A DNA stretch of 64,000 nt from Picochlorum sp. SENEW3 (Eukaryota), in assembly GCA_034226945.1 (NCBI GenBank), contig CP120458.1, positions 62,001 through 126,000 on the forward strand, written 5' to 3'. Positions 11,313 to 44,451 of this stretch are shown piece by piece (the stretch's first letter is position 1; every line of letters starts with the position of its first letter). Under the pieces are notes generated by a model. It was not told where the DNA came from. It was given only the letters and a program-made list of their open reading frames with translations, and ran no database searches. The position numbers and the translations under genes are program-made.

Positions 11313-11569
11313 TGGGGTAGGGAGCCGGGATAGGGTAGGGTATTTTGGCCGGTCGGGTATTTTAAGCGACCGGTGATCATCGGTCGTCGGTAAATCATGA
11401 TTTAGCTCGGGGTCTTAAATAAGGAGGTCTTAAATAAGACCTCTCCCAACCTCCGCCAAATTACAAAAAAATTACAAAATTAAATGAAATTTACTGTCCA
11501 ATTTAAAGAGGGATTTACTCTGAGAAAACTGTACATAAATTCAGAAAGAATTGTGAAGTGCGCTTCGAA

Positions 11570-13822
11570 ATGGGCGTCTCAAAGTATCTGGAAGAGATAA
11601 GAAAGAAAGAAACTGACTTTCTGGTCGACCTTTACGGGTGTACATTGGGAACTCCTTGTCCCTATTTACAGAACTACTTTATTCAGGAAGAGAAAAAATT
11701 GCTATTCATTGGGCAAAAATTGCATTTTTTATCACACGAATCAAAAGGTTTACCCATGAATTACAACGATTACATGCAAAAGATTTTGACACACATTAAG
11801 AGCAATGAGTTTTCAATCATCGATGGCAAAGCCGGCTCTGGCAAGACAACTTTTTCTGAAGAGATAGCAAATCTGTTCATCTCCCAAGCGGATGAGTCGG
11901 ATGGTTTGTCAATCATAATGACAGCCTCTCCACATCTTGTGGAGGAACGTCTATTCGAATATCAAGATTTTAGGGGTCAAATGTGCCTTGGACCACTCGG
12001 CTACTTACGTCACCTTGCGATCAAATGTGAGAAAAAGAGGTTTGTATTCATTTTACATGAATTCAATCGAATTCCTCATTTTATATCAGTGTTTGGACGC
12101 GCCTTTGAATCAGCATTGCAAGTACATGGGCCCAACCAGATGCATGGTGAGCTTTATCAGAACGAGATGATACAGTTCAGTGTTGTATTGCCATCAAGCG
12201 CTGAAGATTTGTCGAAACAAAGAAAAGCCTTTCCGGAAAATTTGAGAATAATTCTGACAGGTAATAAAGTTGAAGATGGCTACAGAGCCTCAATCTTTGA
12301 CGTGATGCGGGACGACGCCTTATCAAATAATAGGCTTCTAATGTCTAAGATGAAGTTTTTGTACTTAGATCACAAGCCGGCGCCCAGTAAAAAACGAGAG
12401 AGAGATGGGTCATTTGTGGAAATTCCACCAACAGAATTCGTTCCATATAATGTGATTGAAAAGAATTTTCAGTCATTGATAAAAGCAAATCTAAAATCGG
12501 AAGACTCGGACAATGTCTTGACTGCAATGGAAGAATACCTCAAATCAGCCATGAAGAATCAGACAATGAAAATGGAAAATGTCATGCCAGCAAAAAGGAT
12601 TTCTCAGTACTTCATCTATTTGCGTGACAAACAGCCAGAGATTTATCATTCAGTCATGCAAAGGTTCAAATATAAACTAGTTGGTTCGGATTATGCGTAC
12701 CCTATAATGATAATCATATCAGAATCAAAAGAATCAGAAAAAATTTCAGACTTCACTGCTGGCCGAAATTTAGCCTCATGCACAGAATTTGAGGAGTTCC
12801 GAAAAACATTGGAGGAGGAGGAGAAAAACTCTTCGTCAAATCAATCTGAGGAGGTTTCTGGGATTGATTGGTTGAAATACATTCCATGTTTTCCCACCAA
12901 CCACCCTGATCCATTATTCAAGATTGAGGAGCACTTTCAAGCCGTTGGTCCCTCAAAAGTAATTTTTACATCAGAGGAAGCAAAGGCGCAGTTTCCTGAA
13001 GAGTTAAAGAGTAGACATCTTGGAGTGAAATGGTATACTATTGGCAGGAATGACCACGGTCTCATGGAATTTCTTAAACATGCAAAAGATCCCCTCGTTC
13101 TAATCGGTTTTGAGTTGATACCAGCAAATCCATTTGCAACAAATTTGCTTTTAGATGTCCTGCTTCCCTGGTTATTTCATCATGAGAAGAAAACCATACA
13201 AAAAAGCATCAAAATCCGTCATTATATTCAATATGATTCAGGAGCACAGAAAACTGACACTGTGTTGTGCGGAGCATGCAGGCGTGGATGGCATGATTTT
13301 GTCTGCCGCGTTCTTGTCCTGGCTGAAGTGTACAAGATGGACATCAATTGTGAAAATCTAGTCTCATGCATTAAGAATGTAGAGATAGTAGATTTTCTAA
13401 TTGAAAAGATAAGACAGGCAAAAGGTATACCTACCTACCTCAATGAATTGAATGTCTTTGAGAAGGCAGAAACATGCCAAGAGTTCCAGCCAACATACCT
13501 ACTAGCAGAGGCTTTTAAAACTGAAAAAAAAATCGAACGAAATGTAGACGCCGGTTCATTGATTCAGTGTGCAATTCAATTGATTGAGATGGCCTCTATT
13601 TTTGTGTCCTTTGATCAAAAGCATAGTTCAATGTTTTCAGAAATGGTCACACAGGCTTTGTCAATTTTTGACGAGGATATCAAGGACCGCACTCAGTTTG
13701 TATTAAAGGCTTTCACCACTGAGAAGGAGAAATGCGAAACTGCAGACAAGCTCTGTATGTGGGCGGAGAGAGTTAACAAGCAAGATATGTTGCAGATTAT
13801 ACACCAAGTATCTGACATATAA
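11570..13822 (+). CDS. McrB-like AAA+ NTPase (~750 aa) with an uncharacterised C-terminal region
   Basis: Intact intronless ORF. Walker A GKAGSGKT; KKRFVFILHEFNR..SVFG (McrB-type KKYVFIIDEINR..KVFG); FPENLRIILTGN (McrB-type PENxxIIGxMN); DALSNNRL (cf. DxALRRRF). Confidence 0.75.
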   Translation: MGVSKYLEEIRKKETDFLVDLYGCTLGTPCPYLQNYFIQEEKKLLFIGQKLHFLSHESKGLPMNYNDYMQKILTHIKSNEFSIIDGKAGSGKTTFSEEIANLFISQADESDGLSIIMTASPHLVEERLFEYQDFRGQMCLGPLGYLRHLAIKCEKKRFVFILHEFNRIPHFISVFGRAFESALQVHGPNQMHGELYQNEMIQFSVVLPSSAEDLSKQRKAFPENLRIILTGNKVEDGYRASIFDVMRDDALSNNRLLMSKMKFLYLDHKPAPSKKRERDGSFVEIPPTEFVPYNVIEKNFQSLIKANLKSEDSDNVLTAMEEYLKSAMKNQTMKMENVMPAKRISQYFIYLRDKQPEIYHSVMQRFKYKLVGSDYAYPIMIIISESKESEKISDFTAGRNLASCTEFEEFRKTLEEEEKNSSSNQSEEVSGIDWLKYIPCFPTNHPDPLFKIEEHFQAVGPSKVIFTSEEAKAQFPEELKSRHLGVKWYTIGRNDHGLMEFLKHAKDPLVLIGFELIPANPFATNLLLDVLLPWLFHHEKKTIQKSIKIRHYIQYDSGAQKTDTVLCGACRRGWHDFVCRVLVLAEVYKMDINCENLVSCIKNVEIVDFLIEKIRQAKGIPTYLNELNVFEKAETCQEFQPTYLLAEAFKTEKKIERNVDAGSLIQCAIQLIEMASIFVSFDQKHSSMFSEMVTQALSIFDEDIKDRTQFVLKAFTTEKEKCETADKLCMWAERVNKQDMLQIIHQVSDI

Positions 13823-14212
13823 TAATGCCCGTCATTGTATGACGAATGTCTTGAAACATACAAATGCAAGACAGAAGATTGCATTGTCATATTCTCCTGG
13901 AGCCCTGCTTTTGTGGTGTCCAACACCGTTTTCCTATTCAACCAAAATGGGGCGTGTGGTGGTGTGCGGTGCTGGTAATTTCAACAAAACGTTGATTCCA
14001 GACAGGTCTTGTAGTGTCGTGAATGCGTCCATCGAGGGTGGTCAGAGAACCTCCTCGATGTGCACTGAGCAAGACGTGTCCCAGCATGGACATCAAACAG
14101 GTGGTCCCATGAAATGAAACTATACTAGATTTATATATATATATATCACTTGTCAACGAACAGAATGTATCTCATCAAACCCCAGATGATGATAATTCGA
14201 ATATACCCAAAT

Positions 14213-15469
14213 GATATAGATTCTTCCAGCCTTGTGGCGAGAATGGTCACAACGCATGTGGAAAGCCAACAATGTTGCACCGCTGCAACTGAACCAAACT
14301 CTCCAGCTTACTATCTATCCTCACCTTGCACAAGCTCGTCAGGCGGCATAATAGTATTCAACGCTTCTTCCTCTTGATATGTACCAACAGTTTGCATCTG
14401 AGACAACAGTGCATTCAGCTTTTGTTCATGAGATGTCACAACATCTGCATCTCAGCCTTTCTTCCTCAGTTGGCTTCAGGGTGCTAATGATGTCACCAAG
14501 GTTTGATACTGACACGAGAGGCAGTCCTTTCGATGCTTTTTGATATGCATATATGTAGCAGAGAGCTACATGCCTGCAGGAGTGGATTCTAGGAAGATTC
14601 TAGAATGAAGAGATCCCAGAGTGTTCCTCTTGTGACAAGGAGAGATCTTGAATCACTGTTCGACTGTAGATGTTCCTAGTCAGAGTCCATACCAGGGGTT
14701 TCTGCAACACCCAACGACTGTTAGCAGGTTGCCATTTCAGGAATGGCAACTCTTTCATTGTTGGCGATGGTGGAGGGAAGCTTGGCTTTCGTTGTTTCAG
14801 CAGTGGCCCTGTCCCCATCACGTTGCTGCTCTGTCCCCACTACTGACGTCCCGTAGAAACCGCATATCTCAATGTGGTCGTGCAAGCCCCCCGATGCTTC
14901 GTCCATGGCTGGCTCGTCCACTCCAACTGCAGGGGTGTGGTCAACCGCTTCTGCCTCCTCTGCAACAAAGGATCCAAGCCCAAGGATGCACTGTTGCAGG
15001 TACCGGGTCTTCTCTTGCGATGCATCGATTGCATGTTGCGATGTGATCACCAAGGGCGAAGCCATCTCGACCCCCTTTTGGGCATGGGCCCTGTTCCTGG
15101 ACAACTCACCCTCTAGCTGTGCTACTTGAGCCAGCAGGGAGGCACACCTTGACCTCTCTTCTTCGTGCATTCCCTCCATCTTTCTGCTCTTCTCATACCA
15201 CACCTTGACGTCACTGTACAGGGCAGTGATGAGCTCCGGAAAATCTCAGGAAGGCTATTTTTGGCCAAAATTTGGCCATTTTCCAGTCTTGGGTACTTCC
15301 TGGGAGGCTCCTCTTCCCGAGGTTTGAAAAATTTTCTCGGCGGTGCCGCCTTGTTTGCGCGACATGTATCATTACTCACTATATCTACATCGATTTCTTG
15401 GGTATGATCCGAATACGCGCCATCGGTGTCGTCGAACTCTTCTCTGTATGGAAACAAGGACAATCGCAC
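14213..15469 (-). pseudogene. Decayed paralog of the 5729..6985 coiled-coil gene
   Basis: 14213..14550 is a diverged reverse-complement copy of ~6680..7020. Upstream broken ORFs 15122..15469 and 14721..15203 are also coiled-coil-like. Confidence 0.55.
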
Positions 15470-15708
15470 GTGCGTTTGAGCACTATTCGAACTGTCCTGA
15501 CATTGTCAGCCAAACGATTTAAAAAGTATTCAAACATACACTGTTGCAATACCATGTACAATAATAATATACACACTACATACTATCACTCCTTTTTTTC
15601 TATGTTCCTATTACATCAGGGGCCTCAAAAAAAGAGGCCCGCGAGAATGTTTTCCTGTATCTGTTTAAAAAAGCACCGGTCGCTTAAATACCCAACCGGC
15701 CAATAATA

Positions 15709-15976
15709 TGTAAGAGCGTGCACTGAACGTCCTGAGACTAATGATTAGGTTCGGTCGGCTGACGGTCCACACCGTAGTAGAGACTGCACTATGTTGGTAT
15801 CCTGGTAACACAGGCCTTGATTATAATGTGTTACACGATGGTATATGTAGTAGAATGGTAGATAATCTTATGAGTCCTCGAGTATAGACTCTGGTTCATG
15901 GTTATATTGTGTAATCTTCTTGGTAGATTGATTCCTTAATAAGAGAGTGCCTTGAGGCATCATCTGTGCTGTTACA
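15709..15976 (-). repeat. Gypsy-1 3' LTR
   Basis: Identical to 20936..21203. Confidence 0.97.
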
Positions 15977-15988
15977 GTTCTCCCCCAT

Positions 15989-18900
15989 TTAGTTGGATAC
16001 TCGTCTCGAGTATTGTTTGAGTAACTCGTGTACTTCGTCAACTCCATATCTGAGCTTTAATTCAACTTCGGGAACTGCTTCTTCTTGTGGTGACGATTCA
16101 TGGTACTTCACCTTGTAGATCTGGTTTTGATTCTCATCAGTAATGATGTCTGTGATTTCTCTGATCTTTGGATACGTAGTATTCTTTCTCACTGGGTGAT
16201 CATATCTCTGTAACCACTCCACATTGACAGTAGGGTGCATCTTCTTGACGTATTTATATTCGTCTTTCAATTCAATACTTTCCCAATTCAATCTTACTGC
16301 GTTAGAGCCAATCAACTCTGTAACAACTACAGGGCCAATGTATCTGGAAAACAGCTTTGCTTGCCCTGGTCCCAAGCGTTGTCTAAAGTTCTTTGTACTC
16401 ACATATACTTTATCTCCGACTTGAATATCATGGTCTCTTCTTCGAGCTCCAATGACTTCTTTTTGTCTTCGCTGAGCTTCTTCCAAATGTGCTTGCGCCA
16501 TTTGTATAGCTGATTGAATCCTCAATAATATTTCATTCACATCCTCTCTGTCTGATACCATTAATTGTGATGCGTTTGCAAATGGGTATACTGGATGTCT
16601 TCCATAATTCAAGAAGAATGGTGTAGTCTGAGTACTGGTACTCACTGCACTGTTCAATGCAAATTCCACCAATGGTAAGTATTTCTCCCAATCCTGAATA
16701 TTGTTCGCACAGTATGCTCTCAACATATCAATGATACTTCTGTTTGCTCTCTCAGTCTGTCCATCTGATTGTGGATGAAAGGCTGTAGTATGAGACAACT
16801 TTGTCCCAAACACGTCCATCATTGCATGATAGAATTCTCCAGTAAATGTAGATGCTCGATCAGTTATGATCCTTTTCGGCATTCCATGTAACTTGAATAT
16901 CGTATCGATAAACGCTTCTACTATTCTTTTAGTAGATAATCCCTCTTTCTGTATAGGTACTGTCCTGACCATCTTTGATAATCTGTCAACAAAAACCAGA
17001 ATGCTGTCATGCTTCGTTTCCTCATTCTTAGGAAATCCTGAAACCAAATCCATAGTAATTTCTTCCCATCTGTACTTTGGTGTGGGTAATGGTTGAGCCT
17101 TGCCATAAGGCTTCTGGTTAATATTCTTCGATTTACTGCATACTTCACAGTGTCGTACCACATCCTCAACGTCCTGTCTCATATTTGTCCAATAAAAGAA
17201 TGTTTGCATGGCTTGCAATAGCCTGTCTCTTCCAATATGTCCAAAAGCGTTATGTATTTCTGTAATTAACTCAGTCCTCAACTGCGATGTATTCTGTGAT
17301 ACTGCCAATATGACCTGAGGAAGCTTATTAGGCTGCACGATTCTGAGTAATCCATGTTCAAAGATGACTTGATCAGGGTCAATCTTATCATGTTGCTCCA
17401 GAACTCTGCTCCTAAAATCTCCATTCTTAGTCAATACATATTCTCGCAAATATTTTGTCCATGCTTGATCATCATACGTCGGCGTGACTTGACTTGCCAC
17501 GTTCTGCAATATGAAAGGAACGGCATTTGGATCTTCCAATGACACTCCAATACTGTGGCATAGTTCTGTTCTATACCAATCTGGTTCCATATCTTCAGCA
17601 AATTCTTGTTTGTCCATAATGTGCATAATTGTCACATCGATAAGCTTTCCATTTTCGAAAGTTTGTAAGGTATTCACTCTCTCCCCCATTCTAGAAAGAG
17701 CGTCCGCGACTCTGTTCTGTTTACCAGTAATGTAGGAAATAACCAAGCCTTGCCCATACTCAGCTAGTACTTCCAACCAACCCAGTTCTTTTCTACCAGG
17801 TGTCTTCAAGGTTCTCAAATGAGTAACTGCGCGGTTATCTGTATATAAAGTTACTCCACCTTTAGCTCCAAGTAAGTAATGTCGCCATTCTCGTAGCGCT
17901 GCGACCAATGCCAAAATTTCCTTTTCAAACACTTGATACTTTCGCTGTGTGTCTCCAAATTTCTTTGATAAGAACTCAATAGGCTGTAAACCTTTTCCAA
18001 AATCTTGCATAAGCACTGCTCCTAGTGCAACATCTGATGCATCTGTGTGCACCACATACAGCAATTTCGGATCTGCAATCCTCAATGTTGGTGCTGAAGT
18101 CAGCTTCAACTTGATGTTCTGAAATTCTCGATCACATTCGTCCGTCCAGACAAATGGTACGTCATCTTTAAGCAATTCTGACAAGTGACAAACTTGAGCG
18201 GAGTAATCCCTGATGAAACGACGATAGTAATTCGCCAATCCCAGAAATGATCGTAATGTAGGGATATTATGAGGCACTGGAAAGTTCTGTACAGCTTCTA
18301 TCTTCTTTGGGTTTACCCTGATACCGTCCGCTGTAACTATTTGTCCTAAGAATAACACTTCATCCTGAAAGAATGAGCACTTCTTCTCTTGCAAATACAA
18401 TTCATGTTCCTTCAATGTTTGGAAAATCCGATCCAGATGCTCTTTATGCTCTTTCCTTGTACGCGAAAATACTAATATATCGTCCAAATAAACGACAACA
18501 AATCCAGCGTCAATATGCTTACGTAGTATACTGTTCATATTCCGTTGAAATGCAGATGGTGCGTTTGTCAAACCAAACGGCAATACCTTCCATTGATAAC
18601 TTCCATCTGGCGTTCTGAAACTTGTCTTGTGTACGTCCTTGTCCTTAATTCTGAATTGCCAATAACCTGATGCTAGATCCAAGGACGAGAAGTATTTGGC
18701 TCCTCGTAGCCTCTTCAATAATGCCTGTATGTTCGGCAAGGGAAATTTGTCTTCCACTGTAATCTTGTTTAATGCTCGATAATCCACACACATGCGTAAT
18801 GATCCGTCTTTCTTCTTCACAAATAATACTTGGCTTCCATAAGGTGACTTTGAAGGTTCTATTAAACCTCTCTTCAATAATTCCTTGACTTCGTGATCCA

Positions 18901-19834
18901 ACTGGTCTTGTTCTTTAGGTGCCAGCAACCTCATTCTTGCACACGGGATCTTTGATCCTTCTTCCGTTCGTATTTCGACATCATATTTACCTCTGTATTT
19001 GGGTAGAGTCGTAGGTGTGCCATTAATAAAGAGACTCTGATATTTTCTCTTCAGGTCTTCCATTTCTCTCGCGACGTATCTGGTAGACGTCAATGTTTCT
19101 TCTGTTGCTGCTTCTTGCACAACACATAGATAGACTTCATCTTCTTTCTCATTCAGCCAATTCTCATATCCAGTTTCGATCTGTTCCATTGTAATCAGGT
19201 TGTTCAGGAATCCGTCGTGTGAGATATTCCGATCTCCAATTTGTATAACTCTGGCTTCTGGTTCGCCTTTCTTGTTCATTTTAGTATAACTCACTTCTGA
19301 GGGACTCACAACTTTCTCTTCACCTTGCTTGCATAACCAATCATAACCCAGGATAACATCATAGCTTTGCAAGTCAATAACCAACAACGATAACATCTCT
19401 CGCACATGCGGTGTGCCTCCATTTTTCCTGGCCTTTTGCTGCACCGTAGGTAACATAATTTCCACTGTAGCTTCCTGATTAACGGGTTCTTCTCCATGAA
19501 TACTAATAATCTTTGACGAACGTCGACTTTCCTTGACAACCAAATCAAGCAAATCCACCAGTCCTTTTGATATAAAGCTGCGACTTGCTCCTGTATCCAC
19601 TAAGATTCGGACGTCTGTTCCGTTAATCTTGCCCATAACAATTGGTAAATGACCTTGTTTTACTTGCTTTGCAGATGTGTTTTCGATTAACCTGTGTACC
19701 GCTTCATGATCTAACGCGTTGATAACTTCTTGCCAATCAAATTCCTCACCAGCTTGTTTCTGGGGACTCTGAGGTGTGTCATCACCTACTGGCTCATGGC
19801 AGAGGTCCCTTCGTCGTTTTCCTGATCCTCGATG
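15989..19834 (-). CDS. pol: Gypsy-1 Pol (protease, RT, RNase H, integrase, degenerate chromodomain-like tail)
   Basis: LVDTGAS, YLDD, TDAS, HHCC (HNAFGH..CEVC), D-D-E, RYIGP. The frame is open from 19834 and overlaps the end of gag in the -1 frame. Confidence 0.95.
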   Translation of the reverse strand, partial: HRGSGKRRRDLCHEPVGDDTPQSPQKQAGEEFDWQEVINALDHEAVHRLIENTSAKQVKQGHLPIVMGKINGTDVRILVDTGASRSFISKGLVDLLDLVVKESRRSSKIISIHGEEPVNQEATVEIMLPTVQQKARKNGGTPHVREMLSLLVIDLQSYDVILGYDWLCKQGEEKVVSPSEVSYTKMNKKGEPEARVIQIGDRNISHDGFLNNLITMEQIETGYENWLNEKEDEVYLCVVQEAATEETLTSTRYVAREMEDLKRKYQSLFINGTPTTLPKYRGKYDVEIRTEEGSKIPCARMRLLAPKEQDQLDHEVKELLKRGLIEPSKSPYGSQVLFVKKKDGSLRMCVDYRALNKITVEDKFPLPNIQALLKRLRGAKYFSSLDLASGYWQFRIKDKDVHKTSFRTPDGSYQWKVLPFGLTNAPSAFQRNMNSILRKHIDAGFVVVYLDDILVFSRTRKEHKEHLDRIFQTLKEHELYLQEKKCSFFQDEVLFLGQIVTADGIRVNPKKIEAVQNFPVPHNIPTLRSFLGLANYYRRFIRDYSAQVCHLSELLKDDVPFVWTDECDREFQNIKLKLTSAPTLRIADPKLLYVVHTDASDVALGAVLMQDFGKGLQPIEFLSKKFGDTQRKYQVFEKEILALVAALREWRHYLLGAKGGVTLYTDNRAVTHLRTLKTPGRKELGWLEVLAEYGQGLVISYITGKQNRVADALSRMGERVNTLQTFENGKLIDVTIMHIMDKQEFAEDMEPDWYRTELCHSIGVSLEDPNAVPFILQNVASQVTPTYDDQAWTKYLREYVLTKNGDFRSRVLEQHDKIDPDQVIFEHGLLRIVQPNKLPQVILAVSQNTSQLRTELITEIHNAFGHIGRDRLLQAMQTFFYWTNMRQDVEDVVRHCEVCSKSKNINQKPYGKAQPLPTPKYRWEEITMDLVSGFPKNEETKHDSILVFVDRLSKMVRTVPIQKEGLSTKRIVEAFIDTIFKLHGMPKRIITDRASTFTGEFYHAMMDVFGTKLSHTTAFHPQSDGQTERANRSIIDMLRAYCANNIQDWEKYLPLVEFALNSAVSTSTQTTPFFLNYGRHPVYPFANASQLMVSDREDVNEILLRIQSAIQMAQAHLEEAQRRQKEVIGARRRDHDIQVGDKVYVSTKNFRQRLGPGQAKLFSRYIGPVVVTELIGSNAVRLNWESIELKDEYKYVKKMHPTVNVEWLQRYDHPVRKNTTYPKIREITDIITDENQNQIYKVKYHESSPQEEAVPEVELKLRYGVDEVHELLKQYSRRVSN

Positions 19835-20802: not shown

Positions 20803-20935
20803 GTCAATTATTGCTGAGGTCTTGATGCAAAGAGGAGCTACCGCACTGTCCCAGTCCGCGTCACGTCAATACCGTGAGATCTCGATTCCTCACGCCAAAT
20901 CCACGGGATTTATACGAAATAGAGCTGAAACCACT

Positions 20936-21203: not shown

Positions 21204-21497
21204 TAATAATAATCCCTAATCCCCCTGCGCAGGGCATGCCCGGTCCCCCGACCATTTGACGGTAAACCACTAGACCTTTTCAGGGGGTCTTAGATAATAG
21301 AAAAGAATCTGGATCTCTAGCTAGAGAAGATCTGTGGGGATTTCCCTGAGCCTGTAAACTATACCGTAGTGACGAAAAATATAGTTTCGATAAGTAAAAA
21401 AATCCAGAAGGTCGGATATTAATTCGATAATAATTAACTCATTTAATAATAGCAACAAATTGGTAAGTGGTTGACGCTAAGGCCCGCTACCGCTAAC

Positions 21498-36438: not shown

Positions 36439-36840
36439 AATAGATAAAAACTTCAACTGGAGAATACCTGTAAAGGATGGATAACAAGGGAGAGAGATGA
36501 GCCATTGACCAACAAAAGAAGGCGTCCCCTCTGATGTGACAAGGCAACCAATCATCCAAAATCATGACAGAAAAGAAAAGTGAACGGGGCCAGCGTTCAT
36601 ATGTTAGTGTCGACACAGAGAGATAGTTGCAACAGAGATCAGAAAGAAGACTCAATTCGAGTTTCAGATGCATTTAATAGTAGTACTCAACAAAGGAGCA
36701 TGATCTCAGAATAATAATAAGAAGCGCTTTCTTTTTTTTCGGAGTTCAGAAACTAACTCGATTTAATGACGTCTTAGAGAACTGTAGTCTCTTGAAGTTG
36801 TTGCATTCTTATGCGTTGATGAATAAAAGATTCCATGAAC

Positions 36841-39800
36841 TCAGGTCACTGGAATTCTAGTCGCTTGTCTTTTCGACGGATCACGGGGTACAACTTGTCT
36901 TGATTGATGTTGCTCATTTTGTTTTTCCCAACGTGATTTCTTATTTGAATCGTTCGATTTTCTTGACAGAGAACGTTTCTTGCGACGGACAACTTCTTTA
37001 TGAGGAACCTCTTTACCTTGATGATCTTGATCTTTATGGCGATCACTCGAGTTCATCTCACCTGTTTTGAGCACAGACTTGGGTCTGGCATCAATGCTCG
37101 CTTTAGCAGCAAATAATTTCTGGACTTGTTCATTGAAAAAGTCCGCACCAGCATGAAGCAAAATCAAATTTTCGGTGCATTGCATGGTCGTACCATCAGT
37201 AAGACGAACCGTATACCAGTCTTGTTGTTTGACCTGGCGATGAGCAACAATGGCTTGCATTTCAAAGCACTTTGGGGCTTTATCAGTATTATACCTGCGA
37301 AACCATTTGATATGTAACACTGGTCGAGCACGACGCATTGTCTGGATCAACTCCAAGTCTAATTTGGATTTAGGAGTGCCAGAATCACACAAATCAGTCC
37401 AAAATATGAGAGCTGTGTTTGGCGAAAGCATACGCTGAATAGTAAAAGGACCAATGAAACGTGGAATGAGCTTTGGCAACTTAATTGCAGATCCCAGATG
37501 CAAATATTTCACATTCAAAAGAACACGATCACCTGGCTTAAAGTTGTGCTTTTGGAATTTTCGTTGACCCGACACAATCTTTGTCATTTGATAATGGTCT
37601 AAAGCCTCTCTGGCTTGTATCTGTGCTGCTTGAATGTTCTGTAATCGAGTCAGCACACCTGTATTATGAGGATCAAGAAGTAATTGGCGCTCAAATTCCA
37701 TAGGAAAGACTAATTCACGACCATGATTCAGAAAGAATGGGGAATGCTTCGTTCCTGTATTCACCGACGAATTCAACGCAAATTCAATCATAGTGAGCTT
37801 ATCAGCCCAATTTTGCGCATGACGAGTATCATTATCGGAAGGATGCATAAGACAGCGCAATTTATTTAGGATGAGCCTATTATATCGTTCCACTTGACCA
37901 TTTCCTGCTGGATGATATGACGTTGTACGGCTCACTTGGATTTGGAAACACACATTCAGGCGAGCAGAAAAGTCATTCACGAATTCACTACCTCTATCCG
38001 AAATGAAACGATGCGATATCCCAAAACGCTTGAAAACATGATGAAAATACAGGTCAGCAATCTTGGCACCAGTTAACCCTTTCTTGGAGGTAGCGACAAC
38101 GACCACGAATTTGGTCAGACTGTCAACAAACACAACAATACAATCCACTATCTCCACATGACCAGAAACCGACAGTTCGACAGCTGGAAAACCTGAACAA
38201 ACGTCCATATGCACTGTATGAAAGGGATGTGGAGGTACTGGCAAAGCCTGAGCATTATTAAACGGCTTCTGAGTACTGTCCTTGGCACACTGGCACACAT
38301 GACAACGCGAGACAAACAAATGACACTCATGAAGATGATGCTTCCAATAAAAATGACGACTTAATCTGGCTTTTGTTTCCTGGTGTGCTCCATGAACACA
38401 CTGCTCATGAAACTGGCGAAGAATATTCTGTCTGAGAGCATCAGTCTGTGGGCAATTAGGAATGATGGTGACCTCACGACCTCGATATTCGCCTCTCAGC
38501 AGTCCATTTTCCAATCGACAACTTCTGGGGTCGATTTTACGACACAGACGACTACATGTGCTGTAAGGTGCTCGTTGAGGTTCAAGCACACAACGCAACA
38601 AAACAGATGTCCAGGGATCTTCCGAGTACGACTTCCGAATCGTATCACACATAAACTGAATTGGATCAGCCAGCTCGTTGGGCTGTTCCGACACTGCGAG
38701 CAAATGATGAGGCTCGACATCTGAGGAGGGTAGAGTCTGTGCCTGATGCACCCCATTCGGCAATCTGGATAAAGGATCAGCGACCTTGTTCTTGGCACCT
38801 GGCAAATGACGAATAATTAATTGCCCATCTCGATACTGAGATAGCACTTGCAGGTAGCCAACTTCTCTTCGGCCCTTGAGAAGTTCTCGTTGTGTGAGCA
38901 TACGAGCGGCTGCGGCGTTATCTGTTTCGACAATGACCTGAGGGGATTGTGTAAGGAATTTGGCCCACTGTTTGAGACAATACACAATAGCTAAAGTCTC
39001 CTTCTCACAAATACCATATCTCGCTTCTGTATCAGTGAACTTGTGGGACAAATACTCTATGGGCTGCCAGCCTCTACCTGTGGGATTCTGCATCAAAACA
39101 GCAACGAGGGCTAAATCACTGGCATCACATTGAATCAAAAACGGCTGAGTGGGCTCTGGCACAGCGAGAACAGGCGGACTGGTAATCAGCTTCTTCAATG
39201 TTTCAAAGGCTATTTGAGCTTGTGCAGACCACACCAGCGTTTTACCTTTCAGCAGCTCGGAGAGAGTGGCGGCAATCTTTGCATAGCCTTGGCAAAACCG
39301 TCGATAAAAGTTTGTGAGACCCAAAACTGAAAGTAATTGAGATAGGTTCTCTGGAGGCTTCAATTGCTGGATGGCTTGCACCTTCTGAGGGGTAACTTCT
39401 ATTCCATCGGCAGAAATAACATGTCCAAGCCATTCCAAACGCTCAAAGAAAAAGAAACACTTGCTCGAATTCAAATAGAACTGATACTGACGGAGACGGT
39501 CGAACAGAATTCGTAAAAGTTCAAGATGGCGTGGGACACAGTCAGTACCTATGAACATGTCATCCATATAGAAGAACACTTCACCGGTGGCAAGCAGATC
39601 CCCTAAAATCGAGGCCAAACGCCTAGAGAAATGACCTGGTGCTACTCGAAGTCCAAATGGTAGCACTTTAAACATGAACCGACCTATCGGCGTGATGAAA
39701 GATGACAGTTCCATAGACTGACGATCTTGCAATCGGAGTTGCCAATACCCACTGGCACAGTCAAGCGAGCTGAGAACCTTGCGATGGCGAATCTTGCTGA

Positions 39801-40857
39801 GGAGATATTGAATAGGTGGCAAATCCGAAGCTTGATCCACGATGAGCTTATTAATCGCACGATAATCAACTACCATGCGCATGGAGCCATCCTTCTTCTT
39901 GACAAACAAAACATGGCTCCCAAAAGCAGATGTACTAGGTACAATGAATCCTTCTTTCAACAGCTCGTCAACTTTTTGTCTAAGAAAAGCCTCCTCTTCT
40001 GCTGTAGGCCATTTAAAGTATGTTTTAGGCGGTTGAGCGCCTTCTTTCAAAGACAATTTCACATCAAAACCTGGTCTTCGCGGCGGCAATGGCGGTAAAC
40101 CCTGAACAAAGATATCTTGATTGCTATGCAAGAAATTCGTTAGTCTCGTATCATTCAAACCGACATGAAATTGTGATTTGGGAGAAGAATCAGGCAATTC
40201 AACATTCCCAACAAAGGGGTATGGAGGACCCTGATAATTCAATGTGCAGCAATATTCGACTTGGTCTGCGTTATTGTGCCACAGATCAACCAGCTCGTCT
40301 TCTTCCATGACCATGGCGCAAAGCGTCAAGCGACGTGATGTGGCATCAGGCGAAGGCAAAGATACGGAGGAAGTACTAGAAACTGTTAATGTAGCAATAC
40401 CTTCTGGCAGCGGTATGTGGATGCCTTGACTATCCCAGCGGCCATTACGCTTCAATATCGATTCTAGCCAACCAAAAGGAAGTATTATATCATAAGGACC
40501 TGTAGGATGAATGTAAAAATACGTAGCTTGCGTGATTCTGTTGGATTGGCCATTGATCAGCACATCATAATGCAATGTCAAGTCACAGGCTTTGGTGATG
40601 CTGGGTCCAAAATCTTTTGTAACTGTGGACAACTGAATCGGTGAGATTTGCTGCAAAGGAAAGCCATACTTAGTAACAAAATCAGCCGACATCAATGGAT
40701 ATGGTGTCGTGCACCCTGAATCAATAAGGACTTGTGCAGGATGTCCCTCACAAAACGCAATAAAAGTGGATGCTCGTGGCGAGTGCGACATGGAATGCAA
40801 ACATATTGGAAGGATTTCAGCGGACTGGCCCGTGTCTGTTTCAGAACAGCCCCTCAC
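36841..40857 (-). CDS. pol: Gypsy-2 Pol (PR, RT, RNase H, integrase, chromodomain-like tail)
   Basis: LIDSGCT, YMDD, CDASD, HEQCVH..CHVC, SDRG, GQVER, RFIGPF, AIVAHR..WYTVR. Confidence 0.95.
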   Translation of the reverse strand: MRGCSETDTGQSAEILPICLHSMSHSPRASTFIAFCEGHPAQVLIDSGCTTPYPLMSADFVTKYGFPLQQISPIQLSTVTKDFGPSITKACDLTLHYDVLINGQSNRITQATYFYIHPTGPYDIILPFGWLESILKRNGRWDSQGIHIPLPEGIATLTVSSTSSVSLPSPDATSRRLTLCAMVMEEDELVDLWHNNADQVEYCCTLNYQGPPYPFVGNVELPDSSPKSQFHVGLNDTRLTNFLHSNQDIFVQGLPPLPPRRPGFDVKLSLKEGAQPPKTYFKWPTAEEEAFLRQKVDELLKEGFIVPSTSAFGSHVLFVKKKDGSMRMVVDYRAINKLIVDQASDLPPIQYLLSKIRHRKVLSSLDCASGYWQLRLQDRQSMELSSFITPIGRFMFKVLPFGLRVAPGHFSRRLASILGDLLATGEVFFYMDDMFIGTDCVPRHLELLRILFDRLRQYQFYLNSSKCFFFFERLEWLGHVISADGIEVTPQKVQAIQQLKPPENLSQLLSVLGLTNFYRRFCQGYAKIAATLSELLKGKTLVWSAQAQIAFETLKKLITSPPVLAVPEPTQPFLIQCDASDLALVAVLMQNPTGRGWQPIEYLSHKFTDTEARYGICEKETLAIVYCLKQWAKFLTQSPQVIVETDNAAAARMLTQRELLKGRREVGYLQVLSQYRDGQLIIRHLPGAKNKVADPLSRLPNGVHQAQTLPSSDVEPHHLLAVSEQPNELADPIQFMCDTIRKSYSEDPWTSVLLRCVLEPQRAPYSTCSRLCRKIDPRSCRLENGLLRGEYRGREVTIIPNCPQTDALRQNILRQFHEQCVHGAHQETKARLSRHFYWKHHLHECHLFVSRCHVCQCAKDSTQKPFNNAQALPVPPHPFHTVHMDVCSGFPAVELSVSGHVEIVDCIVVFVDSLTKFVVVVATSKKGLTGAKIADLYFHHVFKRFGISHRFISDRGSEFVNDFSARLNVCFQIQVSRTTSYHPAGNGQVERYNRLILNKLRCLMHPSDNDTRHAQNWADKLTMIEFALNSSVNTGTKHSPFFLNHGRELVFPMEFERQLLLDPHNTGVLTRLQNIQAAQIQAREALDHYQMTKIVSGQRKFQKHNFKPGDRVLLNVKYLHLGSAIKLPKLIPRFIGPFTIQRMLSPNTALIFWTDLCDSGTPKSKLDLELIQTMRRARPVLHIKWFRRYNTDKAPKCFEMQAIVAHRQVKQQDWYTVRLTDGTTMQCTENLILLHAGADFFNEQVQKLFAAKASIDARPKSVLKTGEMNSSDRHKDQDHQGKEVPHKEVVRRKKRSLSRKSNDSNKKSRWEKQNEQHQSRQVVPRDPSKRQATRIPVT

Positions 40858-42167
40858 TGAAAATTTTGATAATAGCCTTGTACTGGTTGTTGTAGTACCT
40901 GTTGTCCTTGTACTGGCATAGGCATCAGTGGCGCAACCTGGTTGACAAAGTGCTGCGGATTCCCATAGCCACCTTGAGGCGCAACGTGTTGCGGCGGTGT
41001 ACCAAAAGAGTTCTGATAATTATTACCGCGATTCCCGAAATTGCGAGATGGGTGACCACCCCCACCTCGGCCATATCGTCTGTTGGGACCTCGATCTTGG
41101 CCAGGACCTGGATTGCGGCCCCCTCTGTGTCTGAAAGCAGGAATACCATAGGAATGCTCCTGATCCCAGCCCCCAGATCTGGCAGGCTTATGCCTCCAAG
41201 GACCACCCTTGTTCGGCTGTTTCGGAACACGAGTAGAATTATAACCTGGCGTCGTCCTCTGGTTCGGTGCTTTAGACTGGCCTTGGTATCGCCTTGCTTT
41301 CCCCTTTCCTAGGGGCGAAACTTGTGCAACAGCAAAACACGGATCAGGTGCCGTATTGGGCTCAAACCCAGTGGCATACGTCTTGTTTTTGATCACCTCA
41401 GCACGACGCTCCAATTCTGCAAAAATATCCTCGATATCCGGAGAGCTTGGGTATCCCTGGGCTTCCAAATATGCCCGCAGATAAGATCGAGCATACGGGT
41501 TCAATTTCGACAGAAGATCTGTGACCAAGATCCGATCAAGAGAAAGGTCAGGGAACACAGCTGTAAACACATCCCGGTAACCAGCCAGGAAGAGCACCAT
41601 GTCCTCGTCATCCGCCTGCTTCATATCAGCCATCTTGACCATGAGACGTCCTTGATAACCATGACCATTCAAGAATTCCATCAGCTTGCGGGCTGTCTCG
41701 CCCCAGGCATCCCAATCTTCGTTGCCTGAGTTGGCCTCCTGGGCGTCTTTGAACCAAGTCAAGACGCGGTCCGCATGCACGAACGCTTTTGCTTGTTGCA
41801 ACATGTGAACGAAGTCTTCACAACTCACAGGAAGAGCCTGAGACCATCGAATGCTCCGACGAGTCCACAAAGCAGCGCCCAAAGGATCCGTTTTGGGATC
41901 TGGAGGCAGATCTGGAAGCCCTTTTCCCAGCTTGGACCTCTCAATGGGGCTGCACGAGCGGATCGGCGGCACCGAGACATTTTGGACATGCCCCGAATTA
42001 TCTTGGACCTCTCCATTGGCTTGCGGCGGCGAGACCGGCGGCGGCTGGCCACGGTTTTCCTCTGCCCCTGGAGGTGCCATACGACCTCCTGTCACCTCCC
42101 GGCGACGCGGGTTGGACAAATTGCTTTGATTACTTCTGGTATTAGCCATAGTACCAATAAAACGCAC
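40854..42167 (-). CDS. gag: Gypsy-2 Gag
   Basis: 437-aa ORF directly upstream of pol; MKQADDEDMVLFL gag-like motif; RGG/Gln-rich tail. Confidence 0.85.
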   Translation of the reverse strand: MRFIGTMANTRSNQSNLSNPRRREVTGGRMAPPGAEENRGQPPPVSPPQANGEVQDNSGHVQNVSVPPIRSCSPIERSKLGKGLPDLPPDPKTDPLGAALWTRRSIRWSQALPVSCEDFVHMLQQAKAFVHADRVLTWFKDAQEANSGNEDWDAWGETARKLMEFLNGHGYQGRLMVKMADMKQADDEDMVLFLAGYRDVFTAVFPDLSLDRILVTDLLSKLNPYARSYLRAYLEAQGYPSSPDIEDIFAELERRAEVIKNKTYATGFEPNTAPDPCFAVAQVSPLGKGKARRYQGQSKAPNQRTTPGYNSTRVPKQPNKGGPWRHKPARSGGWDQEHSYGIPAFRHRGGRNPGPGQDRGPNRRYGRGGGGHPSRNFGNRGNNYQNSFGTPPQHVAPQGGYGNPQHFVNQVAPLMPMPVQGQQVLQQPVQGYYQNFQ

Positions 42168-42326
42168 TGTGTTTTGGTATGATCACCAAATGTTAGCTGT
42201 TGATTTGCAATAGCTTGAGCTCAGACTGCTTGGGCAGGAACTCAATGATATATAGGTTCAGAACACGTGTGTGCGTTCTATCACTTTAGATGTTAGTACA
42301 AGTTACAATAGTTACTTGCTTATATA

Positions 42327-42926
42327 ATTAATTAGTGTGGGTTACAGCACCAGCCTGGGAGTTCCCGCTCAATGGAGGGACTAGATCGACCGATCGAATC
42401 CGTCCATTGGGGGCCCTGCTCCAGACATCATTGGCAATAGAAGGAATGAAGATAAAACTATAAGAACAACCAAAAAGGGCAAAATTTCGACTCAAATCAA
42501 CTCGAGATACAACTCCACCTGTGATTAACCCACTGACACAGGGAGGAGAAGAGTGTCGCAGCAACTCTAGCAGGTAAAACTGTCATAAACGACCTTGATC
42601 CAGAGCACTGTAAGAGCACACATTTCCAGCGAGGAGTATCCATTCAAAGAAAGCAGATGCATCACATGTTCATAATATTGAGATAGATGACCAATGTAAG
42701 AGAGTGTAATGGAAGACAGTCCAATAGAATGTTCCTGAAACATACAAATGCAAGATAGAAGAGCACTGTCATATTCTCCCGGAGCCCTGCTCTTGTGGTG
42801 TCCAACACCGGGAGGTTTGAAAACGAAGCAATCACCAGACCAGCCACTAGGATTGCTTATGTATGATAAATGTCACATAATCTGCTGGTTACACGGGTTC
42901 ACCCAAAACCCGGCAGAAAAAAAAAA
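42327..42926 (+). mobile_element. ~600-bp poly(A)-tailed insertion in the Gypsy-2 5' LTR (probable retroposed SINE/LINE fragment)
   Basis: Absent from the other LTR; ends in A10 (42917..42926); flanked by duplicated TATATA. Confidence 0.65.
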
Positions 42927-43047
42927 TATATATATCTTCGTTGACTGTTATTGTCGTCGTAATGCTTATATACCTTGGCAACCATCATGAGTAAATGGCT
43001 GTTCTAATTTAGATGATTTAAGACGTAACAGATCCTACTGGGGCTCC

Positions 43048-44451
43048 TTATTCCTCTTGTATTTCAATTCGACTCTCGTTAGAAGAGCAGTAAGCGATAA
43101 TCTTTTCCTTCACATCTTGCCAGCTGTGCAAGTTCGACTTGGGAGAGTCAGCACCAGGCTTCCAGTATATAATCCAGACGTCTTCTCTGTCAGCATAATT
43201 CTTTGAGCCACCATTTTGTTTCCTAGTACTTTGCTTGAATCTCCTGTAGGTGTTGAATGTCCTCTTTCCACCTGGGACAGCATAGAACAAAATATGTTCA
43301 TGACCAAATTCTGGAACATCCTTTCTTACAACCTTTTTGGGGCATTTTGTCTTCCAGATTATGTGGTTGATCTCCTCGAACCCTCGCTCTTGGAATTCTC
43401 GAAGGCATGTCAACACTTGGCTAGGAGGAATACAGAGAAAAATGCTGCCACCATCGATGACCTGTTCCCTGGCCGAGTCAAACCAACATCCCTTCGGAGC
43501 CACCGACGTCCTGCATACCAACAGTTCAACCCCGTCTTTATTAGATCTTGGCACCCATCTTTCTAAAGGTCTGAAAGCCTTCTTTGCCTCCGGATCCCCG
43601 CAATTAGGATCCAAGTTTTCCTTTGATAGTTGGGGCCTTCCATGTTTCTCTTTCCTTGGAGCACTCTGTTTGCAATACTGATGCATCTTCATTTGCTTGC
43701 CTTTCTTTGACTCGTCAAGATACAAACTGTATCCAAACTTAAAGGCATTTTGGTTGATTTCAAACCCACATGACCTGCGCCCCATCTCTCTTGCAACCCG
43801 TGCCGTAAGAGAGCTGCCCAGGAAAAAGTCACACACCATATCACCAGGCGCTGATCCAATGCCAATCATACGCTCCAGGAGCTTTCTCGGTAACTGGTTC
43901 TTGTTCTTCACTTGTCCTGGCTGGTACTCCCGTTGGATCTCCCAGACGTCTCCAAATTCTTTCAATTGCTCTGAAACTTTCCATGCAGGTTCATCTACCC
44001 CAGGCTTCTCATAAAATAGAATATGGTAGTGAGAGGAGACAAACTTTTGTGTGGTCCACACCCCAAAGTTGTACTTCCAAATTATGTGGCTGACCTCCTG
44101 TAGGCCATGCTTTTCCAAGGCCTCCAGCACATCTGCGAGCCGAGAATAGCCGCTCACGATAAATATCCTTCCCCCTGGTCTAAGGACCCGAGCAGCTTGC
44201 TTGACCCATTCTTCCGTAAAGCAGCCATAGTCATCGGCATCAACCTCGACATACCCCTCAACGACGTTGCCCTCGTTCCTGTTATAATGCTTGTGCAGCG
44301 ATTCTCCTTGGATGCCATATGGAGGATCTGTAACTATAAGGTCAATTGAATTGTCGTCGAGCTGATCCTTTGCGCCAATGCGGCAGTCCACGTTGAAGAA
44401 CGTCTCGCCTCTCTGACTTGGGGGAATTGCACGTGAGCGTTTTCGGTTCAT
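43048..44451 (-). CDS. Bacterial-type beta-class DNA N6-adenine/N4-cytosine methyltransferase with a degenerate duplicated C-terminal domain
   Basis: IDLIVTDPPY, RVLRPGG, HIIWKY, HYHILFYEK, DVWEI, CDFFLGS, GFEIN, with DPPY preceding the SAM motif. The second half repeats GGSIF/NHIIWK/HEHILFY/EDVWII. Intronless. Confidence 0.9.
   Translation of the reverse strand: MNRKRSRAIPPSQRGETFFNVDCRIGAKDQLDDNSIDLIVTDPPYGIQGESLHKHYNRNEGNVVEGYVEVDADDYGCFTEEWVKQAARVLRPGGRIFIVSGYSRLADVLEALEKHGLQEVSHIIWKYNFGVWTTQKFVSSHYHILFYEKPGVDEPAWKVSEQLKEFGDVWEIQREYQPGQVKNKNQLPRKLLERMIGIGSAPGDMVCDFFLGSSLTARVAREMGRRSCGFEINQNAFKFGYSLYLDESKKGKQMKMHQYCKQSAPRKEKHGRPQLSKENLDPNCGDPEAKKAFRPLERWVPRSNKDGVELLVCRTSVAPKGCWFDSAREQVIDGGSIFLCIPPSQVLTCLREFQERGFEEINHIIWKTKCPKKVVRKDVPEFGHEHILFYAVPGGKRTFNTYRRFKQSTRKQNGGSKNYADREDVWIIYWKPGADSPKSNLHSWQDVKEKIIAYCSSNESRIEIQEE

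Follow-up and report, generated by a model that had tools for sequence, protein, structure and literature searches.

Results

Mobile elements of the locus

The 64-kb window analyzed here comes from the nuclear genome of Picochlorum sp. SENEW3. Positions 1-43031 of this window are a mosaic of mutually independent mobile elements, which include two Ty3/gypsy LTR retrotransposons, two MITEs (one hAT-like and one PIF-like), and a SINE-like retroposon, together with a dead KDZ transposase and a fragment of a MULE. Three intact and transcribed genes were present among these elements. One encodes an AAA+-like NTPase of 751 aa; the other two are spliced and encode a GHKL protein of 1,912 aa and an AT-hook protein. 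A DNA methyltransferase (MTase) gene is located at the right border.

The first retrotransposon (RT1, 15709-21203, minus strand) is young and intact, with 268-bp LTRs (15709-15976 and 20936-21203) that are 100% identical, the target-site duplication (TSD) TAATA, and a gag-pol frame (15989-20865, minus strand) containing PR, RT, RNase H, INT, and gag domains (Pfam). Its insertion point adjoins the right copy of a 31-nt inverted repeat (see below), and RT1-like transcripts (95-99% similar) were present in two marine metatranscriptome runs. The second retrotransposon (RT2, 33301-43031, minus strand) has LTRs at 33301-33529 and 42191-43031 and a complete gag-pol set at 36841-42182 (minus strand; Pfam); its flanks, ATGTC and GATCC, form no TSD. 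A PIF-like MITE (33530-34313, TSD TAA) is inserted in the 3' LTR of RT2, and a SINE-like retroposon with a poly-A tail (42327-42926) in the 5' LTR. The span 11341-44451 had been described from the sequence alone as nested DNA transposons. The two full gag-pol sets with their LTR pairs confirmed that it is rich in transposons; however, this wording is misleading because LTR retrotransposons make up approximately 15 kb of the 33-kb span.

A fragment of the SINE-like family (13844-13928, unstranded) showed a 91% match to 42727-42810. This multi-copy family was abundant in the RNA runs, with a depth over the fragment of 1,157 in X3 and 75-141 in X5/X6. Repeat C (3512-5443, unstranded) has a second copy within RT2 (34498-36437) that is 92% identical (self-BLAST and repeat search). 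The hAT-like MITE (583 bp, 29165-29747, unstranded) has the TIR TAGAGTTGGG and the 8-bp TSD GTGACACT, and its insertion is polymorphic; two runs contained the empty-site joint 29155>29747, namely X6 and the DNA run X1 (depth 58.8). Since at least five unrelated TE classes of differing age are present, the locus fits serial insertion.

The MULE transposase fragment (2-547, plus strand) is open at the left end of the window, approximately 11 kb outside the 33-kb span, and matched Pfam MULE (1.1e-6; 29.4 bits vs a cutoff of 27.6) and a ZSWIM1-3 RNaseH-like domain (1.2e-8). The KDZ-family transposase pseudogene (8263-10999, minus strand) is immediately to the left of the span. Its own match to Pfam KDZ (2.2e-4) is below the cutoff, and it was assigned through its relatives P0134 and P0135, both with PF18758. 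Both transposase calls of the sequence-only reading hold. In a tblastn comparison with P0134, the N-terminal part was 72% identical with a 30-aa deletion, approximately 140 aa were absent, and the C-terminal part was 99% identical and carried an in-frame stop (8497-8499). The window holds only this one, broken copy of a KDZ transposase.

An inverted repeat of approximately 380 bp (arms 6661-7044 and 14195-14569, unstranded, ~86% identical) has both the KDZ pseudogene and the NTPase gene between its arms. Its arm ends have no TSD and its outer ends are ragged. The left arm and ORF 5666-6985 overlap, so that a partial gene duplication is a possible origin of the repeat. The NTPase gene is also bracketed by a 31-nt inverted pair (11345-11375 and 15674-15703, unstranded; 29 of 31 positions match), which leaves the KDZ gene outside; its copies were the sole two matches in the window (0-0.02 expected by shuffling). 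Inverted pairs at the ends of the GHKL, AT-hook, and MTase genes did not exceed shuffled controls. Therefore, the claim that most of the genes sit next to TIR-like ends applies to the NTPase gene only. No TIR/TSD-bounded unit around the whole gene set was found in the window.

Genes among the elements

The NTPase gene (11570-13822, plus strand; ORF 11507-13822) is unspliced and transcribed, with a cDNA-like contig at 11500-14003 that contains no gaps. The public model P0001 (Picochlorum sp. SENEW3, 485 aa, 99% identical) maps to 12350-13819 and is without the NTPase core. Its locus tag is an n2 tag; according to the genome report, n2 haplotype sequences are given only for chr04, 06, and 09-10 (PMC11092101). 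The protein has the Walker A motif GKAGSGKTT and the conserved motifs VFILHExNR, RIILTGN, and ALxNNRL. It resembles McrB in its AAA+-type core and in the NR that follows Walker B (HExNR here); DExNR is the AAA_5 group form of Walker B plus NR. McrB chains were also the PDB matches running from Walker A to Walker B. However, their E-values were only 0.1-0.27, which is not significant, and, unlike McrB, the best profile matches were RuvB-like (hhalign probability of 83%) and Lon AAA+ (79.5%) proteins. In a further difference from McrB, there is no McrC-like nuclease near the gene. We would classify this P-loop protein as AAA+ at best, for which the previous label "McrB-like" appears too specific. 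Only four distant relatives were found among 5.8 billion proteins, the nearest with 38% identity, and the protein forms a cluster of one sequence.

The GHKL gene (CDS 21495-28269, plus strand; transcript ~21393-28808) has 11 exons and encodes a protein with an N-terminal GHKL ATPase. Its introns are located at 22500-22571, 22756-22829, 22946-23045 (inferred), 23340-23403, 23841-23904, 24268-24385, 25076-25193 and 25884-26001 (both inferred by repeat), 26692-26911, and 27479-27563. GT..AG joints were present in run X3, and the spliced frame is open for 1,912 codons. The GHKL-type ATPase ORF (21453-22538) scored 0.97 to HATPase_c_3 clusters in the Atlas and had hhalign P values of 0.002-0.056 to all four GHKL groups (control, 0.07-0.79). 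The protein itself had no Pfam match. It resembles MORC/paraMORC ATPases in its HATPase_c_3 neighbors and in the N-box (ExxDNS), DDGHG, and GTGxKN motifs, which are kept across a three-sequence family. In contrast to these ATPases, it is without a CW finger (no Pfam match to CW or another zinc finger on any exon) or an annotated coiled coil, and has a tail of 1,500 aa in which a 230-aa module is present in triplicate. This module corresponds to a tandem 808-bp unit (24150-26795, plus strand; ~3.3 copies, 99% identical; a 690-nt exon and a 118-nt intron per unit) and is a recent in-frame triplication; the DNA contig depth over it was 169.8 vs ~68 in the flanks. The module had been read as OTU, giving a "MORC-OTU" protein. 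The GHKL-type ATPase was retained in our analysis, whereas OTU had no match in Pfam, PHROGs, or PDB sequences. Among 1.84 billion representatives, the GHKL ORF had three matches, one of which is a repeat artefact and two of which are credible. AlphaFold models of the NTPase and GHKL proteins had pLDDT values of 39 and 38, respectively.

The AT-hook gene (29987-31613, plus strand; ~454 aa) has three exons (introns 30269-30378 and 30603-30754). Its joints were found in X3, the second joint also in X5, and the spliced ORF was recovered. The motif PRGRGRPRG closes ORF 30714-31613 (C terminus PRGRGRPRG...KKRKQ), in agreement with the previous AT-hook call. The 231-aa ORF at 32354-33049 (minus strand), the likeliest origin of the "YqaJ-like" call, had nothing in Pfam or PHROGs, and its best PDB match (E 0.13) was unrelated; YqaJ had no match in Pfam, PHROGs, or PDB sequences.

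In run X3, the NTPase, GHKL, and AT-hook genes were each represented by a separate cDNA contig, with GT..AG joints and, in one case, an unspliced 2.5-kb contig. All three reading frames are unbroken, and their codon usage is similar to that of adjacent housekeeping genes (KL 0.08-0.11 vs 0.03-0.16).

Depth and copy number

The DNA contig depth in X1 was ~68 over both the NTPase and GHKL genes, equal to that of neighboring unique contigs, and also ~68 in the interior of RT1. There was no sign of extra copies of the NTPase and GHKL genes in contig depth, which is not equivalent to copy number (a caveat of the tool). DNA contigs break at 11344 and 28808. The depth of the 11.4-28.8 kb block (~68), compared with 130.7 for contig 29747-31096 and 58.8 for the MITE-empty allele, is haploid-like and hints that this block is present on one homologue only, like a mobile or recently inserted unit. 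Protein database searches revealed no second copy of the NTPase, MTase, or GHKL protein, and relatives in viruses were likewise not found.

Discussion

We consider it somewhat probable (roughly 55%) that this locus is an island of TE accumulation with lineage-restricted genes, possibly a repeat-rich rearrangement site or centromere, and that the MTase is separate from it. The island may have arisen in an otherwise compact, repeat-poor genome as unrelated elements inserted independently and many times, in some cases very recently, and the three lineage-restricted genes would have survived between them. We propose that the genes are neighbors owing to a region permissive for insertions and novel genes, for example a repeat-rich rearrangement breakpoint or pericentromere, rather than through joint movement or action as a unit; no functional link was found among them. 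From their family membership, the NTPase and GHKL proteins are inferred to work on DNA or chromatin, and, together with the AT-hook protein, they may do so in the nucleus.

TEs account for 4.99% of the P. SENEW3 genome and cluster in a few regions (PMC11092101, PMC12636532), and the centromeres described to date in green algae are regions enriched in transposons (PMC12636532). The locus is similar to the centromeres of Chlorella, Coccomyxa, and Chlamydomonas and to the repeat-rich right arms of chr04 and chr06 of P. SENEW3 in that nested LTR and other TEs extend over tens of kb of a compact genome. However, it differs in housing three expressed genes that are not recognizable as TE genes. Three observations count against simple accumulation. 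Two inverted-repeat pairs bracket the NTPase gene beside a KDZ gene. The three genes have next to no relatives (four for the NTPase and two credible ones for the GHKL ORF), a pattern that would be uncommon among regular host genes but is characteristic of selfish or conflict genes. Finally, the haploid-like depth of the 11.4-28.8 kb block hints at its presence on one homologue, as expected of a mobile or recently inserted unit.

The first of these observations could mean that 6661-14569 was once a KDZ element, bounded by the ~380-bp inverted repeats and carrying the transposase and the NTPase gene as a passenger, which died and was later hit by other insertions. At least one more KDZ copy exists, represented by P0134. 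Precedents are also available; Cryptococcus KDZ1 carries three genes, with TIRs of 236 bp and a TSD of 8 bp, and KDZ elements elsewhere have long TIRs and extra ORFs (PMC11343200) or TET/JBP cargo (PMC12730594). As in KDZ1 and the fungal TET/JBP-carrying elements, a transposase with a Cys-rich N terminus adjoins an unrelated gene within long inverted repeats. In contrast to them, this locus yielded no 8-bp TSD, its transposase is broken, and the putative passenger would be an AAA+-like NTPase in place of TET/JBP. The arms are only 86% identical, yet the KDZ C terminus is 99% identical to its relative. Moreover, the outer ends are ragged, the overlap with ORF 5666-6985 is consistent with partial gene duplication, the NTPase appears to be single-copy (one cluster member), and its own 31-nt pair excludes the KDZ gene. 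We regard this explanation as unlikely.

Eukaryotic MORCs silence TEs. A still less likely explanation is that the three are host genome-defense genes in pericentromeric, TE-rich chromatin, with a MORC-like GHKL compaction ATPase working alongside the AAA+ NTPase and the AT-hook DNA binder; their rapid evolution would then stem from conflict with transposons. Each of the three genes is well transcribed, two are spliced in the manner of host genes, their codon usage is that of their housekeeping neighbors, and the recent module triplication fits an arms race. However, MORC-specific features were not found, there was no sign of interaction among the proteins, and no orthologs in other algae were detected in the databases searched; none of the four relatives of the NTPase or three matches of the GHKL ORF has an algal name.

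The sequence-only reading proposed that the block, or large parts of it, consists of one or a few giant DNA transposons with cargo, mobilized by MULE/KDZ transposases, in which the NTPase, GHKL, AT-hook, and methylase genes serve as a toolkit for altering chromatin or DNA to escape host silencing. Its inventory was accurate for the TE-rich span and for the NTPase, GHKL, AT-hook, MTase, KDZ, and MULE genes, but not for OTU, YqaJ (two of the six domain calls), or McrB specificity. The proposal itself gains from the extreme rarity and patchiness of the genes, for which neither vertically inherited algal orthologs nor synteny away from TEs came to light, the NTPase inverted repeats, the nearby transposase genes, the haploid-like depth with its contig breaks, and the plausibility of all four products as DNA or chromatin actors. 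On the other hand, termini or a TSD in common were not found, the transposases are one fragment and one pseudogene, nearly half of the span is retrotransposon, and the MTase lies past a complete LTR element and abuts GAPDH. Because only the NTPase gene is between inverted repeats, no TIR/TSD unit encloses the set, the KDZ gene is broken, and contig depth shows no sign of extra copies, the cargo toolkit is largely unsupported, and we consider it the most improbable of these explanations.

The MTase ORF (43048-44451, minus strand, 467 aa from the first Met; ORF to 44496) starts 17 bp beyond the last LTR of RT2 and is divergent from GAPDH (45154-46200). It encodes a beta-class N6-adenine/N4-cytosine DNA MTase, as the previous amino-MTase call had stated, with the DPPY motif and strong matches to Pfam N6_N4 (1.9e-42), PADLOC MTase_II (3.1e-97), and CcrM and further PDB MTases. 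No restriction partner was found within the 64-kb window. The N6_N4_Mtase domain, with DPPY before the SAM-binding motif, is shared with beta-class type II and orphan MTases (CcrM, M.RsrI, M.MboII, and DpnA). The relatives are prokaryotic (72 loci in Bacteria and Archaea, 43-55% identity), with nothing above 57% identity among the 120 matches listed. Unlike prokaryotic beta-class MTases, this gene is on a eukaryotic nuclear chromosome beside GAPDH. Under the island interpretation, it would be a separate prokaryote-derived gene that arrived by horizontal transfer and belongs to no element, and its product is presumably an orphan adenine methylase. The protein also carries a C-terminal degenerate half-repeat of the MTase domain, which is shared with a few relatives, one of which is named Planctomycetia.

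Genomic setting

A protein search with the NTPase ORF (751 aa, 11570-13822, plus strand) gave as its top match a 99% identical protein named ‘hypothetical protein PSENEW3n2_00000623 [Picochlorum sp. SENEW3]’. Therefore, the window is nuclear DNA of a trebouxiophyte picoalga. In the sections of the genome description used here (PMC11092101), TEs account for 4.99% of the 13.75-Mb genome (LTR elements, 0.81%; DNA transposons, 0.35%), twelve centromeric regions are set by Hi-C, and alternative ‘n2’ sequences are given for chr04, 06, and 09-10 only. The n2 locus tag of the matching protein suggests that the window lies on chr04, 06, or 09-10. Telomeric repeats and tRNA genes were not found in the window. 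From 43 kb rightwards, it carries mostly intron-poor housekeeping genes, namely GAPDH, a protein kinase, eIF2-beta, UGGT, an APH/acyl-CoA dehydrogenase, and a CemA-like protein.

The 33-kb span at 11341-44451 had been read from the sequence as giant MULE/KDZ-mobilised DNA transposons that carry a restriction-modification/chromatin toolkit. That observation was partly right, whereas most of the interpretation found no support. Approximately 15 kb of the span is retrotransposon, and the mobile elements of the window represent five or more unrelated classes that differ in age. The simplest explanation is an island where TEs accumulated and where three expressed, lineage-restricted genes are found, with an orphan DNA methylase gene, acquired horizontally, at its border. 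The products of the three genes probably bind or remodel DNA or chromatin. The present analysis maps in detail a TE island, of which the 13.75-Mb genome of this model picoalga has few, and provides three corrected or new gene models.

Genes of the island

Public runs were aligned to window positions 11401-31400. Run X1 behaves as DNA, and X3, which shares its coded organism and sample with X1, behaves as cDNA with GT..AG joints; X5 and X6 are marine metatranscriptomes. The NTPase, GHKL, and AT-hook genes are all transcribed, and the latter two are also spliced. X5/X6 gave no RNA cover over the NTPase gene or over most of the GHKL gene, which we do not read as silence.

The NTPase ORF was covered by a single unspliced X3 contig (11500-14003) with no gaps, and this cDNA-like contig supports the full 751 aa. 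In the public 485-aa model, the start lies beyond the P-loop core, so that the catalytic domain is missing, and 5 residues are removed as well. Pfam matches were at the P-loop level only (nSTAND3, 8.3e-5; AAA_5, 0.015-0.036 on two relatives). A profile of the five-sequence family matched a RuvB-like protein at 83% (P 8.7e-6) and a Lon AAA+ protein at 79.5% in hhalign, with matches that span Walker A to Walker B and control P values of 0.29-0.87. The McrB-like assignment of the sequence-only reading reduces to AAA+-like at best. McrB chains in the PDB matched only at E 0.1-0.27, and no McrC-type or nuclease match was detected by Pfam or PADLOC in the ORFs around the gene. McrB has a GTP-specific signature after sensor 1, and an N-x-x-x-[DE] motif in the NTPase alignment was noted by eye only. 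We consider the protein to be AAA+-like, with no demonstrated McrB-specific affinity. A PDB sequence search with the single protein gave no match, and the AlphaFold2 model from the five-sequence alignment was unusable (pLDDT 38.1 for GHKL exon 1 from a three-sequence alignment, likewise unusable, and 39.2 for the NTPase). Four distant relatives were found among 5.8 billion proteins, and the profile recovered one 1.6-kb contig without gene context from metagenomes.

The GHKL gene (21495-28269, plus strand) has 11 exons, joined at eight sites seen in X3 (seven tabulated and one from contig piece offsets) and at two inferred by repeat symmetry. Splicing yields an open frame of 1,912 codons. An 808-bp tandem repeat at 24150-26795 comprises approximately 3.3 units that are 99% identical. 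Since each unit corresponds to one 690-nt exon and one 118-nt intron, a 230-aa module has been triplicated in frame, and recently. DNA depth over the repeat was 169.8, approximately 2.5 times the value of ~68 beside it.

We accept the N-terminal domain of the 1,912-aa protein as a predicted GHKL domain. In the Atlas, the ORF was placed among HATPase_c_3 clusters at 0.97, and its ten best hits with a family assignment all fell into a single family or clan (10/10). The ORF itself had no Pfam match. It had three matches among 1.84 billion representative proteins, one of which is a repeat artefact; in one of the two credible relatives (P0129), HATPase_c_3 was found at 1.5e-4, below the cutoff. The ExxDNS, DDGHG, and GTGxKN columns are invariant in the three sequences of the family (3/3). 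The four GHKL groups compared (MutL, HtpG, histidine kinase, and TopoVI-B) aligned at these motif positions in hhalign, all with P 0.002-0.056 against 0.07-0.79 for the control family, but with match probabilities of only 1-13%. Searches of the PDB with the single sequence and the profile gave no match, and nothing above 38% identity to the 1,912-aa protein was present in the protein library searched. For the earlier MORC call, the support extends to GHKL (Atlas, motifs, and hhalign), and the protein is at most a candidate MORC. MORC ATPases also have an S5-fold transducer domain behind the GHKL domain and a CW zinc finger or coiled coil; the ORFs covering the exons had no Pfam match to a CW or zinc-finger domain. 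The OTU call, which concerned the triplicated module, was not borne out: the repeat-unit and C-terminal ORFs had no Pfam match at E<=10 and no PHROGs match, and PDB matches were to unrelated calcium-binding proteins only (E>=0.11). These searches used unspliced ORFs, in which the candidate domain is split by an intron. A GSGSC motif is present, and no His motif was seen. The NTPase and GHKL families are very rare and merit structural follow-up.

The AT-hook gene (29987-31613, plus strand) has two introns, and one of its joints was also seen in X5. Its spliced ORF ends in PRGRGRPRG...KKRKQ and contains, at the C-terminus, one R-G-R-P core with basic flanks, PRGRGRPRGSLTKRRGRLKKRKQ, as had been proposed; the protein is a predicted DNA binder. 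The sole X1 contig at 29747-31096 differs from the window by 14 letters and 5 gaps, and X3, from the same sample, agrees with the window at some of these positions. These mismatches between runs indicate that the AT-hook gene region exists as two diverged alleles or copies. The genome is reported with about 7 SNPs per 100 kb.

A YqaJ-like gene, for which the ORF at 32354-33049 is the likeliest source, was not recovered: no YqaJ match was obtained with Pfam (sets of 20, 25, 16, and 56 ORFs), PHROGs (16 ORFs), or the PDB (ORF 32357-33049), in scans of ORFs of at least 70 aa or, between some sub-regions, of at least 100-150 aa only.

The DNA amino-methyltransferase call was confirmed. The ORF (43048-44451, minus strand) is intact, lies beside GAPDH, and has a degenerate half-repeat at its C-terminus. 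Its N6_N4_Mtase domain scored 146 bits in Pfam (cutoff, 26.7) and 3.1e-97 for PADLOC MTase_II; DPPY and DFFLGSS are present, and CcrM and RsrI were among the PDB matches. As a prediction, the assignment to the beta-class N6A/N4C DNA methyltransferases is secure. In the window, PADLOC matched this gene and otherwise gave P-loop-level matches only. The relatives are prokaryotic (72 loci of Bacteria and Archaea, 43-55% identity). Among the best 120 of 2,444 database matches, none exceeded 57% identity and none had an algal name; therefore, the ORF is seemingly absent from the public protein sets searched, and it seems to be unannotated. Horizontal transfer is its likely origin. With an intact gene for a prokaryote-type DNA adenine/cytosine methylase, this green-algal nucleus offers a testable case of such transfer, and the predicted enzyme could mark DNA with 6mA or 4mC.

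Is the island one mobile unit?

The genes had been described as lying next to TIR-like ends. This applies to the NTPase gene, which is bracketed by a 31-nt inverted pair (11345-11375 / 15674-15703) that is unique in the window. It does not extend to the GHKL gene, the AT-hook gene, or the methyltransferase gene, for which no inverted pair exceeded shuffled controls. A second inverted repeat of ~380 bp and 86% identity (6661-7044 / 14195-14569) encloses the NTPase gene together with a KDZ transposase pseudogene (8263-10999, minus strand), which lies to the left of the span. Two relatives of this transposase, P0134 and P0135, carry the Pfam KDZ domain (PF18758), and P0134 implies a second KDZ copy. 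Relative to P0134, the window copy is damaged by a 30-aa deletion, the loss of ~140 residues, and an in-frame stop; identity is 72% over the N-terminal part and 99% over the C-terminal part. This mosaic points to exchange between KDZ copies by recombination or gene conversion. At 2681-2773 there is another, weak fragment of a KDZ N-terminus, and a MULE transposase domain extends past the left end of the window.

A rival explanation, which we consider less probable than the island reading, is that the NTPase gene may be a passenger of a KDZ transposon. In Cryptococcus KDZ1, as described in PMC11343200, extra ORFs lie between 236-bp TIRs, with an 8-bp TSD, and the ~380-bp repeat bracketing a KDZ pseudogene and the NTPase gene resembles this layout. 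However, of the features of a KDZ element (an intact transposase, TIRs, and an 8-bp TSD), the transposase is broken and the inverted repeat is present with ragged ends and no target-site duplication. Depth in X1 was ~68 across the NTPase gene, the interior of LTR element 1, and the GHKL gene, with no excess suggesting extra copies. Contig depth does not equal copy number, but values of 130.7 for the contig at 29747-31096 and 58.8 for the empty allele of a hAT-like MITE indicate that ~68 may be the haploid depth. DNA contigs break at 11344 and 28808. These observations hint that the 11.4-28.8 kb block may be present on one homologue only. Relatives of the NTPase or GHKL families were not found in the viral contigs scanned, which weakly disfavors an endogenous-virus origin. 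Codon usage and GC3 did not separate the island genes from the neighboring housekeeping genes.

A more ambitious reading combines these points. Positions 11344-28808, or more of the island, would be a recently arrived mobile or introgressed unit on one homologue that brought an undescribed AAA+ ‘HExNR’ family and the GHKL family; the NTPase would be a KDZ passenger; and both NTPases and the AT-hook protein, perhaps with the methyltransferase, would form a chromatin/DNA-modification module of a new eukaryotic cargo element. We regard this combination as quite improbable and prefer the TE-accumulation island. A linked mobile ‘chromatin toolkit’ would, if true, be a novel kind of selfish element in eukaryotes, a claim that the evidence here does not support.

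Mobile elements

Two Ty3/gypsy elements occupy the island on the minus strand, and both encode RT, RNase H, and integrase. The two 268-bp LTRs of LTR element 1 (15709-21203) are 100% identical, and the element has the full Ty3/gypsy gene set and TAATA as its target-site duplication; Pfam matched protease and gag in this element only. LTR element 2 (33301-43031) has an LTR pair, a PBS-like tract, and a purine-rich tract, and its flanks, ATGTC and GATCC, show no target-site duplication. Both of its LTRs were invaded: the 3' LTR contains a 785-bp PIF/Harbinger-like MITE (terminal inverted repeats of 34 nt; TAA duplication), and the 5' LTR contains a 600-bp poly-A-tailed SINE-like retroposon (42327-42926). 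A fragment of the same SINE-like family (13844-13928) directly follows the NTPase gene and is very deep in RNA-type runs (1,157 in X3).

Short repeats also recur in the window. Repeats A (2351-2512 / 33139-33300) and B (2516-2593 / 11235-11312) have sharp common boundaries and adjoin different elements (LTR element 2 and the KDZ upstream region). The filler sequence between repeat A and repeat C (3512-5443 / 34498-36437) is unrelated in the two copies.

The hAT-like MITE (29165-29747, 583 bp) has the TIR TAGAGTTGGG and the 8-bp duplication GTGACACT. Position 29155 is joined straight to 29747 in a DNA contig of X1 and in a contig of X6; therefore, the insertion is polymorphic. The DNA run contains the filled as well as the empty allele, and the empty one recurs in the marine metatranscriptome, which suggests recent transposition.

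Several elements of the island thus appear to have been recently active: the polymorphic MITE, and the Ty3/gypsy element with identical LTRs and marine transcripts. LTR element 1 is represented by transcripts of 95-99% likeness in two marine metatranscriptomes. Contigs from these runs connect the internal 3' end across an LTR to the internal 5' end (‘goes back 5227’), and could represent LTR circles, tandems, or an assembly artefact.
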